A stretch of 17,526 bases of DNA. Origin: Candidatus Hodarchaeota archaeon (GTDB taxonomy: Archaea; Asgardarchaeota; Heimdallarchaeia; Hodarchaeales; Hodarchaeaceae). Shown in pieces: positions 709 through 17,526 of the stretch. Location of the stretch: NCBI GenBank assembly GCA_016839815.1, contig JAEOTM010000067.1, forward strand, positions 1 through 17,526, written 5' to 3'. The translations under genes and the position numbers were made by a program. Numbering within the stretch: the first letter of the stretch is position 1; the number at the start of each line of letters is the position of its first letter. The notes beneath the pieces are model-generated. The model saw only the letters and a list, made by a program, of their open reading frames with translations, ran no database searches and was not told the origin of the DNA.

Positions 709-912
709 TTATTTGGTTGATGCGAGTTTAATATCAGATTCTTTGACAGTCTTCCTTCCAGAGTGTTTTGCAATATCAACAGCGTATTTAGCCATATTCA
801 TTGCGTAATCAGTTAACACTTCATTTAGACGATCAATAGCACCAGCAGATACCCTAAAAGCGCCTGCGGTACGAATCAGATTTTCAACTCTTGCACGTGC
901 AAATCCTGCCAT
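709..912 (-). CDS. Archaeal histone (HMfA/HMfB family, 67 aa, no tail)
   Basis: Histone-fold signatures AGAFRVS (G17, R20) and AKHSGRKTVKESDI (H50, R53, T55, D60). RBS AAGGTGA upstream. Confidence 0.95.
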   Translation of the reverse strand: MAGFARARVENLIRTAGAFRVSAGAIDRLNEVLTDYAMNMAKYAVDIAKHSGRKTVKESDIKLASTK

Positions 913-1183: not shown

Positions 1184-2889
1184 ATGGCAGATTTGCTCCA
1201 ATTCATTTTAATACTCTCCCCTTTTGCCTTGGCGATTTATTTGTTGGTTATAAAACGCCGGAAAGCAGACTCAACAGGAGTTTTAATCTGGTTAATAATA
1301 TCTATACTTGCATTTTTCTTTTCAACTTCAGTTCCCGACATTATGATAATTTCTATTGCTGGGATCATAGATTCATTTAAAATAACGTTAATGGTTGGAA
1401 CATCTATCTTTATGATTACCTACATGGGAGAAGCTGGAGCTTTAAAGCGAATAATCATTTTTATCAAGACCCTAAAGGATCTCATCTTGCATGGCAAATT
1501 TTATTCCTGAATTTTGGTTTTGGATGTTTTCTTGTAGCAATTGGTGCTACACCAGTCTCAATCTTACCACCGATTATGATCGCTCTTGGGTTTCCTCCAG
1601 TTGTAGCTGTAGCTATACCAGCAATTGGATATGACCCATTAACTACTTATGCATTACTTGCTATTCCAGTAGTTGCATTTACAGGTGAAATGAGTGTTCT
1701 ATCAGATCTTGGTATTCTACAATCATCTGCACCTACCCTCCAAGAGGTTGGAATGACTTTCAGTTTATACATGCCCCTGGTATCTACAGGTATCGCAATA
1801 GCTATGCTATATTTAGCAGGTGGAGGGAAAATGATAAAAGATCCTAACTCAATTATTCTAGCTTTATTAACAGGAACCACAGCTGGAGTAATCGCTGTTG
1901 TGTCAAATTATCTTGGTGTAGTCACATTAACAGGTATCCTCTCAGGAATTGCTGTAATTATAGTTCTAGGTCTATATGCCAAATCTCAAGGATACCACAT
2001 TATTAATCGGACGGGTTTATCGGAGGAAGAGAGATTGTTTGAAAAACAGATGTCTTTACGGACAGCTTTCTCACCATGGATACTCTTAATCATTTTTGCT
2101 TGCATAACAAATTTGATTCCATTCGTTTTTCATGTTTTATTTAATGAATTAACTCTTCCAATTCATATAGGTAGTTTTACTGTAAAAACAAGACTTTTTT
2201 GGCAAGCTTATACCTGGGTAATGGTTGCTGTATGTATATCATTCCTTATTATTCCTACTGATAAGGATATCATCAAGAAAACGATTTTAAAAATTAAAAA
2301 ACGCGCTTTTTGTCCAATGATCGCCTCCACGGCATTCTTTGCAGTAGCTTGGATAATGAATAACTCCTCTCCAGAGAATCCATCAACGAATATGATCGCA
2401 ATACTTTCAGAATTTACCTCAACGAATATGGGTTTAATATTTCCTTTATTAGTTCCCCTTATTGGTTTTTTTGGGGGCTTTGTTTCAGGAAGTGAGACTT
2501 CTTCCATTGTAATGTTTACACGTTACCATGTAAAAACAAGTAATTCCCTTGGATTAGATCCTATGACAATTTCTACAGCAAATGGAGTAGGAGGAGGATT
2601 GGCAAGTGTCATAACTCCTGCAAAAGTACAGAATGCCGCAGCTACTATTGACCAAATTGGTATAGAAGGACAGGTGATAAGAAAAACCCTGCGTATCTCT
2701 TTGATGATGATTGCACTATTATCTGGAGTTACACTTCTTTGGGCTGTCACCTTCCCTACAATTGATCTGATACTTGTTTCAATACTAGCACTTATGTATT
2801 TGATTGTACTTACTTTCCTATTCAGTTTTGGCCGTTACTATAAACACAAATCGTTTCAAACACCTATTCCGGATATGACAGACCTGTGA
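1184..2889 (+). pseudogene. lctP: L-lactate permease (LctP/LldP family) split by a single -1 frameshift near 1474-1477 (pseudogene, sequencing error or recoding)
   Basis: ORFs 1184-1510 and 1576-2889 join into one ~568-aa polytopic protein. The -1 frame reads GSHLAWQILFLNFGFGCFLVAIGATPVSILPPIM into the second ORF. LctP-like motifs GGFVSGSETSSIVMF and ANGVGGGLASVITPAKVQNAAA. Confidence 0.8.
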
Positions 2890-11826: not shown

Positions 11827-12207
11827 TCACTTTAATCGTGGTGGGATACTCTCCCAAATTTTTTCATTTTGTTTAATAAGAAATTCAATAGCATCAGAAA
11901 AAGTATACTCTGATTTATTACTCTCAAATTTCAGACGTCTTAAGATATCGTGAGCATCGGGCCTCAAGAGGATTGTCTTTGAACTCTTCGTTACTTTATT
12001 TTCTCCTGGATTTTTCGATTCAATTCTATGACGTTTTTCATCGAAATTTGTGAGTTCATTTTCTAAGGTTTGAGAACTATTTTGTATCTTACCATCTAAT
12101 TTTAGGAGAACATCACTATAAGATTTCTCCTTTAGCTCAAATTTTGCCCAGCGTAGCATTTCCCATGCCTTACTAGAAATCTTAACATTTTGGGCTTCTT
12201 TTGACAC
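11827..12207 (-). CDS. Tandem-duplicated ribbon-helix-helix (VapB/CopG-like) DNA-binding protein
   Basis: Two internal repeats: NVKISSKAWEMLRWAKFE..KSYSDVLLKL and TILLRPDAHDILRRLKFE..YTFSDAIEFL, both matching the archaeal RHH pattern TI.I...A...L...K....SFSD.I..L. GTG start with GAGGT RBS. Confidence 0.75.
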   Translation of the reverse strand: MSKEAQNVKISSKAWEMLRWAKFELKEKSYSDVLLKLDGKIQNSSQTLENELTNFDEKRHRIESKNPGENKVTKSSKTILLRPDAHDILRRLKFESNKSEYTFSDAIEFLIKQNEKIWESIPPRLK

Positions 12208-12376: not shown

Positions 12377-12730
12377 ATGAGTGACTTTGAAGATTTAGAT
12401 TTTGATCTTGAAGAAACAGCAACTGTGAAGGCTAAAACACCTGCACAGTCGAAAACACCCGTAACTGGGGTTCAGGCTGGTCCAAAGAAGAATATTTTCT
12501 TTAAATCAACTGTTGGTCCAGAGAGAACTGAAAAACTCTCCGTTGGTGAAAACACTCCTGTGAGAGACGTCCGAGATACTCTAGCAAATATCTTTGGATT
12601 AGATCCTGATGATTTCCATCTTTCTCACGCTGGAAGAACTCTTGACGAAAGTGCTCCAATAGGTGAGTATGGAATAGAAAATGGTGATGAAATCCTCTTA
12701 ATTCCCCAGTCAACTGCAGGTTGGAATTAA
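12377..12730 (+). CDS. Ubiquitin-like modifier 1 (beta-grasp; acidic N-tail; C-terminus STAG-WN)
   Basis: Ub-like AGRTLDESAPIGEYGIENGDEILL; G115 followed by a 2-residue extension; first gene of the E1-E2-JAMM-RING cluster. Confidence 0.88.
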   Translation: MSDFEDLDFDLEETATVKAKTPAQSKTPVTGVQAGPKKNIFFKSTVGPERTEKLSVGENTPVRDVRDTLANIFGLDPDDFHLSHAGRTLDESAPIGEYGIENGDEILLIPQSTAGWN

Positions 12731-12892
12731 TCAGAGGATTAATTCACATTTTCTCAATTTTTCTAATAGGAAAATCCCACTTACAAATAAATCCAGAATT
12801 AAACTCTACTCTTCCGATTAAACAGTATTTAATTAAAAATTCAGATAGATATTTATGGATTGATTGTTATGAAAATGATTGTATTCTCGCTA

Positions 12893-12908
12893 CAGATTTT
12901 AAAATCTG
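12893..12908. promoter_or_regulatory. Perfect 16-bp palindrome CAGATTTTAAAATCTG with TATA-like core
   Basis: Directly visible; 72-87 nt upstream of the likely Ubl2 ATG, in a 249-bp intergenic gap. Confidence 0.5.
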
Positions 12909-12979
12909 GAACACCTTCATTATCAACAGATGAGAGTTTTCCAGATCTTATCCTAGAGAATACAAGGAACGATGTAATC

Positions 12980-13330
12980 ATGTCGGAAAATGAAGAGTTT
13001 ATTGAATTTGAGGAAGAAGAGGAGGAGGAACAAACTGATCCATCAATTCAATCCAAAGTTCCACGATCCAAGGTTCCAAGTGGAGAGCGAATTTCATTAT
13101 TCTTTCGGTCGACAATTGGACCAGGGGAAAAACAAGAAAAACTAACAGTTGACCCTGAGATGCCTGTTCGGGAACTAGCGGAGACAATTGGGGAAATTTT
13201 TGCATTAGATCCACAAGATTTTCACCTTTCAATCAGTGGTCGAACTCTGGATACTGATGATGTTTTATCGAATTACGATCTTGAAAATGGGTTAGAAGTT
13301 CTTATTATTCCTGTAAGTACTGCAGGTTAA
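12980..13330 (+). CDS. Ubiquitin-like modifier 2 (116 aa; acidic N-tail; ends STAG-stop)
   Basis: 42 of 78 aligned core positions identical to Ubl1 by manual count. Start moved from 12860 to ATG 12980 because MSENEEF parallels MSDFEDL, the lengths then match (116 vs 117 aa) and AAGGA lies upstream. Confidence 0.88.
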   Translation: MSENEEFIEFEEEEEEEQTDPSIQSKVPRSKVPSGERISLFFRSTIGPGEKQEKLTVDPEMPVRELAETIGEIFALDPQDFHLSISGRTLDTDDVLSNYDLENGLEVLIIPVSTAG

Positions 13331-13354: not shown

Positions 13355-14593
13355 ATGTCAAATTTCACGAGTAAAACGCTGTCAAAGGAAGAAAAAAGAC
13401 GCTTTGATCGTCAATTTCGACTTCCTGGATGGAATCAAGAGATTTTAAAACAAAGCTCTGTCCTGATAGCAGGGATCGGAGGTTTAGGAGTAGAAATCGC
13501 TAAAAACCTAGCCATGGTTGGTGTTGGGCACTTAGTACTCGTGGATCTTGATACAATTGAATATTCTAATTTAAATAGACAGATATTGTTTATTGGCGCT
13601 CCTGAAGGTGCTCCAAAAGCTGAAATGGCTGCAAAAAAACTTCGGGAGTTGAATCCCTTTATCAAAGTTGATGCGTTTAATTGTCCCCTCCAAGATGTTC
13701 CTCCTCACATTTATAGTGAGGTTGATCTGTATATCGGAGGCCTTGATTCTATTGAAGCACGTTCGGAATTAAATCGCAGAGCAGTACATAATAAGAAATT
13801 TCTTATCGATGCAGGCACAGCGGTCTATAATGGACACGCGTATGTGGTTTCTCCGTTTAACAATGCATGTTTGGAGTGTGATCCATTAACTGAAAGGGCA
13901 CAGGATCAACTTGGAGCATGTACACTGGTGGGAAAACCTCGTAGACCTGCTCATTGCATACTTAAGGGACAATTACATTTTGAACAGAAGAAAGGAAGAC
14001 CAGTCAACATTTTACATTCAAATGAAGTTCAAGAAGTTGTAGCTTATGCAAACAAGCTTTTGAGGAAACACTTCCCTCGGGAAGACCCCTTTTCTGTGAA
14101 TCAGGTTATCCAGATCATTGACAACCATGAACCTACTGTTATTACCATTAATTGTGTTATGGCATCAATTCAATCCCAAGAAGCAGTTAAGATATTACAT
14201 CATCTTCGCACACCTAAGACAGAGGATAGTTTAGGTAGTATCCAATTGAATTATCTCATATATAATGGTTTAACAGGAAAATTTTACGAAATAGAAAAAC
14301 CTCGAAATCCTAAATGCGAAATGTGTGGAGAACGCAGAACCCCTATTTACCGTATTAAGGTAAAGAAAAAATATCCTCTAGTACAGTTAATAAAAAGATT
14401 CTCTGAGGATAAAAAGTACCCTATTGATTCTGAATTTCCCCCAACGATTTTTAAAATTGATTCTTCTGAACTTGGGGAAATTTCTTTAGAGCAAACTGTA
14501 TCCAAAGCAGGAATCAAGGATTGTGAGACTGTTCTTGTGACAGGTTTTGATGATGGATCACAAGTCTACCTTACATTAAAATTGGATGGTTAA
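13355..14593 (+). CDS. Ubiquitin-like activating enzyme E1 (ThiF/UBA family, UBA3-like architecture)
   Basis: RFDRQ, GIGGLG, DLDTIEYSNLNRQ, Zn pairs CLEC (172-175) and CEMC, catalytic Cys189 in ACTLVGKPRRPAHCI, probable C-terminal ubiquitin-fold domain. RBS AAGGTGG. Confidence 0.93.
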   Translation: MSNFTSKTLSKEEKRRFDRQFRLPGWNQEILKQSSVLIAGIGGLGVEIAKNLAMVGVGHLVLVDLDTIEYSNLNRQILFIGAPEGAPKAEMAAKKLRELNPFIKVDAFNCPLQDVPPHIYSEVDLYIGGLDSIEARSELNRRAVHNKKFLIDAGTAVYNGHAYVVSPFNNACLECDPLTERAQDQLGACTLVGKPRRPAHCILKGQLHFEQKKGRPVNILHSNEVQEVVAYANKLLRKHFPREDPFSVNQVIQIIDNHEPTVITINCVMASIQSQEAVKILHHLRTPKTEDSLGSIQLNYLIYNGLTGKFYEIEKPRNPKCEMCGERRTPIYRIKVKKKYPLVQLIKRFSEDKKYPIDSEFPPTIFKIDSSELGEISLEQTVSKAGIKDCETVLVTGFDDGSQVYLTLKLDG

Positions 14594-14599
14594 TATATT

Positions 14600-15127
14600 A
14601 TGTCGATTCGCATTAAACGTATTGCAGAAGATTATAATCAATTAAAAACCCTCTACAAGCAGAAAACAATTAAACAGTTGAAAGCATTTCCTGGAGAGAA
14701 AAAAAGCGTTGAGCACATAGCTGTACTGCTTGAAGGACCCAAAGGAACCCCCTATCAAGGGGGGAAGTTTATGCTTGAAATTAAGTTTGGACCAAATTAC
14801 CCATATTCTCCACCTTTTGTCCGTCTCCATACTCCAATTTGGCACCCGAATTTCTGGCCAAAACCAGACGAATATAAAGGAAAACGAAATATTTGTCTTG
14901 GATTAGTGGATCCCGACTTAATTGGAAAACCACAAGGATGGTCTCCATCAAAAAATATAACTACGGTAATTTATTCAATTTTAGCCATGTTTAATATTGA
15001 CGAGGCTTACACTAATCCTCATGATGTTTTTAACAAGAAAGCGGCAATGGAATATCTAAAGGATAAAGGAAAATTCAAAGAAAAAGCACGAAAAATTACC
15101 AAAAAATACGCAAAGAAGAAGTGGTAA
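14600..15127 (+). CDS. Ubiquitin-conjugating enzyme E2 (UBC fold)
   Basis: GPKGTPYQGGKF, NYPYSPP, WHPN (HPN at 82-84), sole Cys99 in NICL, WSP, and FNKKAA. Confidence 0.94.
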   Translation: MSIRIKRIAEDYNQLKTLYKQKTIKQLKAFPGEKKSVEHIAVLLEGPKGTPYQGGKFMLEIKFGPNYPYSPPFVRLHTPIWHPNFWPKPDEYKGKRNICLGLVDPDLIGKPQGWSPSKNITTVIYSILAMFNIDEAYTNPHDVFNKKAAMEYLKDKGKFKEKARKITKKYAKKKW

Positions 15128-15172: not shown

Positions 15173-15985
15173 ATGCCAAGTAAAAAGGATTCTCAAACAA
15201 AAAATTTGTTTGAATTGCTTCTCAGAGATACTGCTATGAACTATAATCCTGATAACTCCACTTTAACTTTAAAATTTCCAACAGCTTCTGAAACCAAAGA
15301 AGTTCCTCAAACAGAGGAAACTCTCACCTTAAAAAAGGATATCTCAGATCAGAGAGAACAGATACAAGAAGATGATGACCTAGACCCTGAGGTTGATCCA
15401 GTTAGAGTTAAAATTCAATTAAGAGCTTACATTCGACTTAGCCTTCATGCGTTAAAGTATGCCAATTCTTCTATTCCACAATCAGAGTGGGTTGAAGTCA
15501 TTGGCCTTTTGACAGGTCATATCGAAAACAAAGATACACCACTTGCGTGCTTGGTAATAACCGATGCATTTCCTGTAGGACATGGAACGAATGTGAACGC
15601 TGAAATCGAGGACCCCCAAAGTATGGTTCGAGTATTTAACGAAAGTCGGAAAAAAAGGGAATTAATACTTGGATGGTATCATTCACATCCTTCATATGGA
15701 GCATTCATGAGTTCGACTGATTATCGAACACAAGTTCGATATCAAAGACTAGGGACAAAAGGATCTCAGCTTTCTGCACCAATAGCTCTTGTTATTGATC
15801 CAACTAGAATATCTAGACGAACTTATGGTTTTAAAATCTTCAGATTGAAAAAAGATTTGAAAAACTGGGAAGAACCTCGCTATGAAGTTTTAAATTGTCC
15901 TTTAGAAAGTCTTCCTGAATTAATCAATACACTACTACCCTTAGCAGAAGGGAAAACGATGTTCTTAGAATATGATTATGAATGA
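15173..15985 (+). CDS. JAMM/MPN+ metalloisopeptidase (Rpn11/CSN5-like)
   Basis: E108 in EVIGLL; GWYHSHPSYGAFMSSTD (H170, H172, S180, D183); TQ..YQ; ALVIDP; ~75-aa charged N-terminal extension. Confidence 0.93.
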   Translation: MPSKKDSQTKNLFELLLRDTAMNYNPDNSTLTLKFPTASETKEVPQTEETLTLKKDISDQREQIQEDDDLDPEVDPVRVKIQLRAYIRLSLHALKYANSSIPQSEWVEVIGLLTGHIENKDTPLACLVITDAFPVGHGTNVNAEIEDPQSMVRVFNESRKKRELILGWYHSHPSYGAFMSSTDYRTQVRYQRLGTKGSQLSAPIALVIDPTRISRRTYGFKIFRLKKDLKNWEEPRYEVLNCPLESLPELINTLLPLAEGKTMFLEYDYE

Positions 15986-16008: not shown

Positions 16009-17121
16009 TTGGTCGGAAGAAATGTTTATATCTCCGTTTTTCTTACGGGATTGGTCTTTGCAATCTTAAGCCAAATTGCTAACCCGGAAACTACGGCCTC
16101 TATCACACTAATTTATATTTCAATTGTAAGTATCTTATTGATTAAGCTCATAGACGAATGGCGTTATTATCGTTCATATAATGCCCCTCTTGCATCAGCC
16201 ATTTTTGTTACCGTACCTGCTGTAATTGCAATTGGGGGATCTCTAATTGCGTTTTCCGCAACATTAGGAGATCAAGAAAATTTTCTACAGAATTTATTGA
16301 TAGAGATGAGTCTGAATTTAGAAGTACTCCAATTAGAGTCTTTTTATCTATATCTAAACTTATTTAGTTTATTCTTCTGTTTACCTTTCTTCATCATTCT
16401 ATCAATCGTATTTAGACGATACTATTCAGGACGGTATCCTAATATTTTCATTTATAGACGTCGATTTCCATCCGAGTCATTAATTGCCCTTAATGTTGGT
16501 ATTCTGATAATCTTTATAGTTTTCTGGTTTGATCAAAAAACAATAGAGATTAGTTCTTTATTATTCCTACTCTTCACTATTCTGACCTTTATTCAAAATT
16601 ATATTATGAAATTCGTCATCATCCCATTTAGACGTAGTCCTAGGCCTTCAAGAAGTGAATCCTTTACACGAAGAAGATCAACTAGTCCTTCACAGGTTTC
16701 TAGGACAACTACTCAATCGAATTCACGAATCTCTCCCACCAGTAGATCTCAAAATGCTATTAGAAGCACTCCACGAAGATCGACGATCCATATAGCGCCA
16801 CCAGTCCAAGTTACAAGAAGAAAAAAACGAAAATTGACCCCTGCACTTATAGCGAGCTTAACCCCAGCAGGTCAGAATATTACAATGGAAAATTTTCGCT
16901 GCATTCAATGCTATGAATATCTAACTGACACCGAAAGACAAGTTGTCATCTGTCCTCACTGTAAACATCCCAGTCATGCAGATGAGTTTCAGAAATGGCT
17001 GGAAGTTTCCAATATTTGTAGTCGGTGTAATAAACCAATTAATACAGTAAAAATGATCAGGATTTCGGGGCCGAGTTATCAGAAAATAATTCAAATGTTT
17101 CGGAAGAAGTACAACAATTAA
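16009..17121 (+). CDS. Polytopic membrane protein with C-terminal RING-H2-like finger (putative E3 ligase)
   Basis: About 6 hydrophobic helices (aa 1-207), Arg/Ser-rich linker, then CIQC-x13-CPHCKHPSHADEFQKWL-x5-CSRC. TTG start, exact start uncertain. Confidence 0.82.
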   Translation: MVGRNVYISVFLTGLVFAILSQIANPETTASITLIYISIVSILLIKLIDEWRYYRSYNAPLASAIFVTVPAVIAIGGSLIAFSATLGDQENFLQNLLIEMSLNLEVLQLESFYLYLNLFSLFFCLPFFIILSIVFRRYYSGRYPNIFIYRRRFPSESLIALNVGILIIFIVFWFDQKTIEISSLLFLLFTILTFIQNYIMKFVIIPFRRSPRPSRSESFTRRRSTSPSQVSRTTTQSNSRISPTSRSQNAIRSTPRRSTIHIAPPVQVTRRKKRKLTPALIASLTPAGQNITMENFRCIQCYEYLTDTERQVVICPHCKHPSHADEFQKWLEVSNICSRCNKPINTVKMIRISGPSYQKIIQMFRKKYNN

Positions 17122-17139: not shown

Positions 17140-17526
17140 ATGGCTATACGGCATTCTATCGCTTGGTTTATCATGCTTATTGGTGTATCGGCAACAATAT
17201 TCTTTTTTATACAAGATGATGATGCATTAGCTCTTAATATTCTATTTCTATCAATCTATACAGCCATCACAATTCTTTATTTCTTACGAATATTTTATTA
17301 TGTAGATCATCATGCATCATTAAACGAAATCTATTTTCTCTCTCTGGCCAACATCATTCCACTGGTAATTATCCTCGTAAGTCCCTATTTTCCAATATTT
17401 GAAGAAGTTCTACTCTCTTTTGAAGTAAATATGTTACCCTCGAATGAATATATTGAACTTCAGATCGCAGTGACTTCACTACTCGCTTTTCCTTATTTAG
17501 TGGTTTCCACTGCATTGTTAATCAGA
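17140..17526 (+). CDS. Membrane protein, partial (runs off the right edge); apparent paralog of the TM domain of the upstream RING protein
   Basis: Manual translation gives 129 open codons from ATG 17140: MAIRHSIAWFIMLIGVSATIFFFIQDDDALALNILFLSIYTAITILYFLRIFYYVDHHASLNEIYF...SLLAFPYLVVSTALLIR. Starts 18 nt after the RING stop; not in the ORF track. Confidence 0.8.
   Translation, partial: MAIRHSIAWFIMLIGVSATIFFFIQDDDALALNILFLSIYTAITILYFLRIFYYVDHHASLNEIYFLSLANIIPLVIILVSPYFPIFEEVLLSFEVNMLPSNEYIELQIAVTSLLAFPYLVVSTALLIR

Follow-up and report, generated by a model that had tools for sequence, protein, structure and literature searches.

The window analysed here, one entire 17.5-kb contig (17,526 nucleotides) of an Asgard archaeon, carries two genes for ubiquitin-like proteins, Ubl1 and Ubl2, whose chains end in a single glycine, which raises the question of the branch of the ubiquitin family to which such tags belong. 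An earlier note had taken them for UFM1/ubiquitin hybrids, intermediate or ancestral forms linking UFM1 to the ubiquitin clade. The evidence points with good confidence to another answer: Ubl1 and Ubl2 are probably paralogs within an Asgard-wide modifier of the ubiquitin family that is served by a dedicated conjugation operon, and their tail, Ser-Thr-Ala-Gly (STAG), would be a variant of the archaeal Thr-x-Gly-Gly tail and not the end of a UFM1 mosaic.

The tags and their operon

The nearest named homologues are found in Hodarchaeales. Both tags end in IP-x-STAG and not in GG, as the earlier note had stated, and all the segments that it quoted are present. Ubl2 repeats the layout of Ubl1 (Table 1), with a tail of ~35 residues, acidic and then K/T/P-rich, followed by an 80-residue core, and the two cores are identical at 42 of 79 positions. 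The start of Ubl2 was placed at ATG 12980 rather than at TTG 12860 because orthologs start at the matching MS-acidic site. The tandem pair is present genus-wide, whereas the other lineages examined have one copy per operon. Against the ubiquitin model PF00240 (cut-off 25.4 bits), Ubl1 scored above the threshold (33.6) and Ubl2 below it (18.9). A read-through fusion of the two genes was considered and rejected, as they share a frame but are separated by several stops, and the frames differ in orthologs. The promoter scan gave no signal exceeding shuffles.

Table 1. Position and main attributes of the features of the window
Feature	Position	Strand	Attributes
Histone gene	709-912	-	archaeal histone (PF00808)
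Consecutive membrane ORFs	1184-2889	+	108 and 437 aa; by eye, lactate-permease-like transporter halves, possibly frameshifted
Divergent small gene	11827-12207	-	two weak antitoxin/RHH-like matches; possible regulator
Ubl1	12377..12730	+	117 aa; ends LIPQSTAG, then WN-stop
Ubl1 N-tail			~35-36 aa; acidic, then K/T/P-rich
Ubl1 core	from 12485		ubiquitin fold, ~80 residues
Ubl1 C-terminal end	Gly codon ends 12721		candidate reactive Gly; propeptide WN, 2 residues
Ubl2	12980..13330	+	ATG start; 116 aa; ends IIPVSTAG-stop, no extension
E1 activating enzyme	13355..14593	+	ThiF fold; GxGGLG, NLNRQ, catalytic Cys in ACTL
E2 conjugating enzyme	14600..15127	+	HPN, catalytic Cys, two conserved insertions around Cys
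JAB/MPN+ metalloprotease	15173..15985	+	intact Glu and HSH...D motif; candidate maturase/deconjugase
TM-RING protein	16009..17121	+	six predicted TM segments and C-terminal RING-like finger; candidate membrane E3
Small membrane protein	17140..17526	+	truncated at contig end

The locus is a conserved Asgard version of the archaeal ubiquitin operon in which the tag does not end in Gly-Gly. Its E1 is UBA1/UBA3-like by profile scores (UBA1 121 bits, UBA3 107, UBA5 49), and the E1s of STAG operons form a family-specific clade of their own (support 100/99). The E2 is of the UBC type, with UBE2R2/Ubc13 as best matches, and no match to the UFC1-type E2 (PF08694) was detected in this genome. The RING-like finger gave weak Pfam RING matches, below cut-off, and has Glu at one ligand position. 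The cluster of Ubl, E1, E2, JAB and TM-RING genes is kept in Hodarchaeales, Heimdallarchaeia and Loki-type genomes, although one family has the E1 rearranged; orthologs retain the catalytic motifs of E1, E2 and JAB. The small membrane gene downstream of the TM-RING gene is also found in Hodarchaeales and Heimdallarchaeia operons, and other Hodarchaeales likewise have a counterpart of the divergent small gene ahead of their operons. At some loci (L196, L199) a lone STAG gene occurs without the enzymes.

Relatives of Ubl1 were found in 198 of 400 Asgard genomes, with identity still at 53-58% in Loki-type genomes. A score of 75 bits or more on the family profile was reached by 156 distinct, full-length units; of these, 154 end in Ala-Gly (STAG in 140) and none in Gly-Gly, a count with a small circularity as the tail columns belong to that profile; the two others are a unit truncated by a contig end and a divergent sequence. 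The Ala-Gly Ubls are therefore a distinct, conserved single-glycine family, their ending is no product of chance, and the absence of Gly-Gly reported by the earlier note extends to the orthologs. No published description of this family was found in the literature searched, which left out most subscription journals. The C-terminal extension varies, being absent from 80 units and two residues long in 42; roughly half of the units are encoded in mature form, the other half with a short extension. In addition, head-to-tail precursors (P0067, P0068, P0007 and P0014), in which the Ala-Gly tail of each unit runs into the acidic start of the next, parallel polyubiquitin. These tandem precursors and the variable short extensions imply cleavage after the glycine of Ala-Gly. 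Fusions carrying the STAG domain at the C-terminus and keeping its Ala-Gly end were also observed (P0083, P0089, P0133 and P0166), their partners being zinc-finger-like, Roadblock-like, ATPase-like and others, with domains named by eye.

The position equivalent to Ile44 of ubiquitin is Ser in 83 of 89 family sequences, and lysine is found at the equivalents of positions 48 or 63 in none of the 89. An S/T-K-T/V/I-P motif is present in 58 of 60 N-tails, with 99 occurrences against 0.9 in shuffles. Many genomes also have a STAG-operon-linked gene (L194:8587-9315, L206:2817-3563 and L203:10843-11997, for instance) with K-T/I-P repeats as in the Ubl tails, whose basic, disordered or coiled-coil product is a candidate substrate; no copy was found in this assembly, in which the operon's contig stops first.

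Ubiquitin and UFM1 compared directly

Comparison of the family with both modifiers revealed no preferential profile similarity to UFM1. A Pfam scan of 39 members matched ubiquitin in all 39 and Ufm1 (PF03671) in none at E<=10. The STAG profile scored 64.3 against eukaryotic ubiquitin, 63.2 against Asgard ubiquitin, 35.5 against Asgard UFM1-type tags and 19.8 against eukaryotic UFM1 in HHalign, with a probability of 98% to ubiquitin versus 9% to eukaryotic UFM1, and global profile scores followed the same order (48.3, 47.6, 23.5 and 22.6). Nor was a preferential structural similarity to UFM1 observed: for the AlphaFold model of Ubl1 (pLDDT 88), the top Foldseek match was Caldiarchaeum ubiquitin (CsUb; E 3e-8, TM 0.86) and the top ranks were ubiquitins, UFM1 being absent among the 50 Foldseek matches listed and among the 60 PDB sequence matches listed. 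The model has a 4-residue turn (59-62) where that of the Asgard UFM1-type tag has an 8-residue helix before the last strand. VIA-align listed UFM1 for neither the STAG model nor the positive-control UFM1-type model, and is hence uninformative. By every direct measure, the structural one being the Foldseek ranking, STAG appears closer to ubiquitin than to UFM1.

The resemblance to UFM1 that had been seen by eye is above chance (21 of 79 identities between Ubl1 and vertebrate UFM1, z 6.8 against shuffles), but Ubl1 resembles eukaryotic ubiquitin (z 12.8) and its own genome's Gly-Gly archaeal ubiquitin (z 7.9) more strongly. Region scores of the STAG profile against archaeal ubiquitin, eukaryotic ubiquitin, Asgard UFM1-type tags and eukaryotic UFM1, in this order, were 11.7, 2.1, 11.1 and 5.9 bits for the hairpin; 15.3, 15.6, 14.1 and 9.2 for the helix; 8.3, 9.9, 4.5 and 0.4 for strands 3-4; 12.7, 15.4, 1.3 and 4.4 for the segment before strand 5; and about 9.0-9.1, 5.2, 3.0-4.9 and about 10.7-10.8 for strand 5 and the tail. 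Since archaeal ubiquitin fits the hairpin and helix better than eukaryotic UFM1, no contribution from UFM1 has to be invoked for the N-terminal half; the hybrid impression arose with a comparison to human proteins only. The tail match between STAG and eukaryotic UFM1 is real but small. However, its IP-x4-G spacing is probably ancestral and not diagnostic, since archaeal ubiquitin shares the register (LITRTEGG aligned to LIPQSTAG) and 10 of 13 Asgard ThiS/MoaD-like carriers have Pro at position -6. The two-residue extension, also cited as a link to UFM1, is confined to Ubl1 of the pair and varies across the family.

An Asgard family with the properties of UFM1 does exist. In 400 Asgard genomes no protein exceeded the Pfam Ufm1 cut-off, so this model alone cannot define Asgard UFM1, and a control family was built from tags adjoining or fused to UFC1-like E2s in Asgard genomes. 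These tags end in R-x-x-V-G. All five that were submitted to Pfam fell below the Ufm1 cut-off, Ufm1 being the sole match for two of them; the top 13 PDB matches of the control profile were all UFM1, as were Foldseek ranks 1-7 of the control model, and all trees containing both grouped the tags with eukaryotic UFM1 at 99-100%. This family is distinct from STAG and is a true UFM1 relative; a search of this 89%-complete genome did not detect it. Asgard Ufm1 homologues have already been published (PMC12962969), and the control family presumably corresponds to them, as it fits the description given there. UFC1 had previously been described as eukaryote-only (PMC10183829). The UFM1-type tags (L118-L122 and L125-L153) have UFC1-like E2s, JAB and E1 genes close by and a patchy distribution.

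The genome holds two further Gly-Gly Ubl systems, each with its own E1 and E2, one of them in the ESCRT cluster, as well as separate ThiS/MoaD genes. The ESCRT-linked one (G000:C135:21729-37640, L117) comprises a canonical Asgard ubiquitin ending in TTGG followed by TNR, together with E1, E2, UEV protein, small RING and ESCRT-like genes. The second (G000:C122:13701-17631, L116), nearly restricted to Hodarchaeales among the genomes searched, consists of JAB, E2, a Ubl ending in DQIKGG and E1; this Ubl was UFM1-like by eye, but it was rejected as UFM1 with no Ufm1 match and an HHalign probability of 14%. A Loki-type Ubl family ending in TQAGG (L154-L157 and L185-L187) is its kin (HHalign 95%). 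Another cluster (G000:C189:65270-68357, L115) contains JAB, E1 and two E2-like genes, and was discarded as a UFM1 cassette because no Ubl tag gene was found nearby and PF08694 gave no match.

Alternative origins and roles

A different history has been considered, in which the mechanism is unchanged and the lineage formed by eukaryotic UFM1 and the Asgard UFM1-type tags has the Ala-Gly family as its slowly evolving sister, the penultimate glycine having been lost once in their common ancestor and the UBA5/UFC1-type cascade acquired later by a diverging UFM1. Among the ubiquitin-like families compared, STAG has the highest score with the Asgard UFM1-type tags (HHalign 35.5 versus 10-23 for the others; 28.8+-4.6 versus 10-21 after jackknifing), and both end in an aliphatic residue followed by Gly. 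STAG plus UFM1 was the best split in six of nine tree builds (UFBoot 72-96), which are not independent, span ~80 columns, are unrooted or ThiS-rooted, and took in no SUMO, NEDD8, Urm1 or ATG8. This maximum-likelihood split was recovered under three alignments (94, 96 and 86), when Asgard tags alone represented UFM1 (96), when ThiS/MoaD served as outgroup (89/94) and in one resampled set (72); ThiS/MoaD alone was not drawn to STAG, which is therefore no universal attractor. However, support drops to 27% without strand 5 and the tail, to 14% without the hairpin and to 15% with eukaryotic UFM1 only, so the signal resides in the hairpin and strand 5/tail, the regions that the earlier note had singled out. 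In the hairpin, moreover, archaeal ubiquitin scores on par with the Asgard UFM1-type tags, and the alignment offers only 80 columns and has a long UFM1 stem. AU tests rejected no alternative (p 0.31-0.44), whether UFM1 was set outside the ubiquitin group, STAG was joined to ubiquitin, or UFM1 was paired with the C122 family, whose Ubl was the sister of UFM1 in two of nine trees. The best E1 tree places the STAG E1s apart from those of UFM1 cassettes (AU p 0.25, not decisive, with the base of the tree unresolved). Of the proposed link between UFM1 and the ubiquitin clade there thus survives the highest profile score with the Asgard UFM1-type tags and a sister position to UFM1 in most of the trees, and we regard the sister relationship as possible but doubtful. 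If true, it would place the origin of UFM1 among ubiquitin paralogs, inside their Asgard radiation. The term 'ubiquitin clade', when applied to STAG, is a statement of similarity and not of proven descent.

It is improbable that the STAG tags carry sulfur or act as non-conjugated adaptors instead of modifying proteins. The missing Gly-Gly, the long disordered tails and the many fusions placing the domain at the C-terminus would suit such a role, but an E2 with a catalytic Cys, a JAB with an intact motif and a RING protein are co-conserved with the tags, the terminal Gly is invariant even in fusions, tandem precursors exist, and the genome has distinct ThiS/MoaD genes. Most improbable of all is that Ubl1 and Ubl2 are true mosaics, with UFM1-like ends and a ubiquitin-like middle, or Asgard UFM1 itself: the above-chance alignment and the tail score speak for this, but the C-terminal match is not common to Asgard UFM1-type tags, Pro -6 recurs in ThiS/MoaD-like carriers, archaeal ubiquitin suits the N-terminal half better and the UFM1 hallmarks and UFC1-like neighbours belong to another Asgard family. 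Pfam, Foldseek, HHalign and region scores largely refute this reading.

Proposed pathway and known systems

The Caldiarchaeum ubiquitin cascade has been reconstituted (PMC5654768, PMC6043591), and by analogy with it a pathway may be proposed for the ubiquitin-family modifier of this locus. The JAB protease would trim WN off Ubl1, cutting after Ala-Gly, and Ubl2 would need no trimming; the operon E1 would then adenylate the terminal Gly and hand the tag to the operon E2. The membrane RING protein, as putative ligase, may steer transfer onto lysines at the membrane, and JAB could remove the tag again, reversing conjugation. Asgard ESCRT-I UEV domains require the Ile44 equivalent (PMC9192718), and the Ser at this position together with the absent Lys48/Lys63 equivalents is consistent with a separate pathway. 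The Ala-Gly tail, the loss of the Ile44 patch and the dedicated E1 would probably insulate it from the two Gly-Gly systems. Chains, if any, would be more likely to form on lysines of the S-K-T/V/I-P motifs of the N-tail, in a SUMO-like manner, since Lys48/Lys63 equivalents are missing. The S/T-K-T/V/I-P tails and the K-T/I-P repeats of the linked gene are candidate acceptor sites.

These observations suggest that multiple Ubl cascades, each equipped with an E1 and E2 of its own, were already operating side by side in the archaea most closely related to eukaryotes; in one of them the tag does not end in Gly-Gly, polyprotein precursors occur and the RING protein sits in the membrane. Together they offer a compact, testable system for the evolution of tag specificity.

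Among known systems, UFM1 shares with STAG the single terminal Gly after an aliphatic residue and, in eukaryotes, Pro -6, and the Asgard UFM1-type tags show weak profile similarity across the first 56 columns. In contrast, STAG lacks the Ufm1 profile match, the second helix and the R-x-x-V-G tail, its E1 is not UBA5-like and its E2 is not UFC1-like. It resembles SUMO in a flexible N-terminal segment where lysine motifs recur, in the lack of Lys48/Lys63 and in Rad60-SLD matches, which stay below cut-off; however, SUMO ends in Thr-Gly-Gly, and STAG scores higher on ubiquitin profiles (SUMO being absent from the trees). The remaining comparison is with the Caldiarchaeum subterraneum operon, composed of CsUb, E1, E2, a small RING and Rpn11 (PMC5654768, PMC6043591), and with the Asgard Ub-ESCRT ubiquitin (PMC9192718). 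The STAG system shares with them the ubiquitin fold, a related hairpin loop motif, the tail register, the E1-E2-JAB-RING set and a precursor with a short C-terminal extension, and differs in its Ala-Gly tail, its ~35-aa acidic/SKTP N-tail, the change of the Ile44 patch to Ser, a membrane-embedded RING, tandem paralogs, head-to-tail precursors and a location outside the ESCRT cluster.
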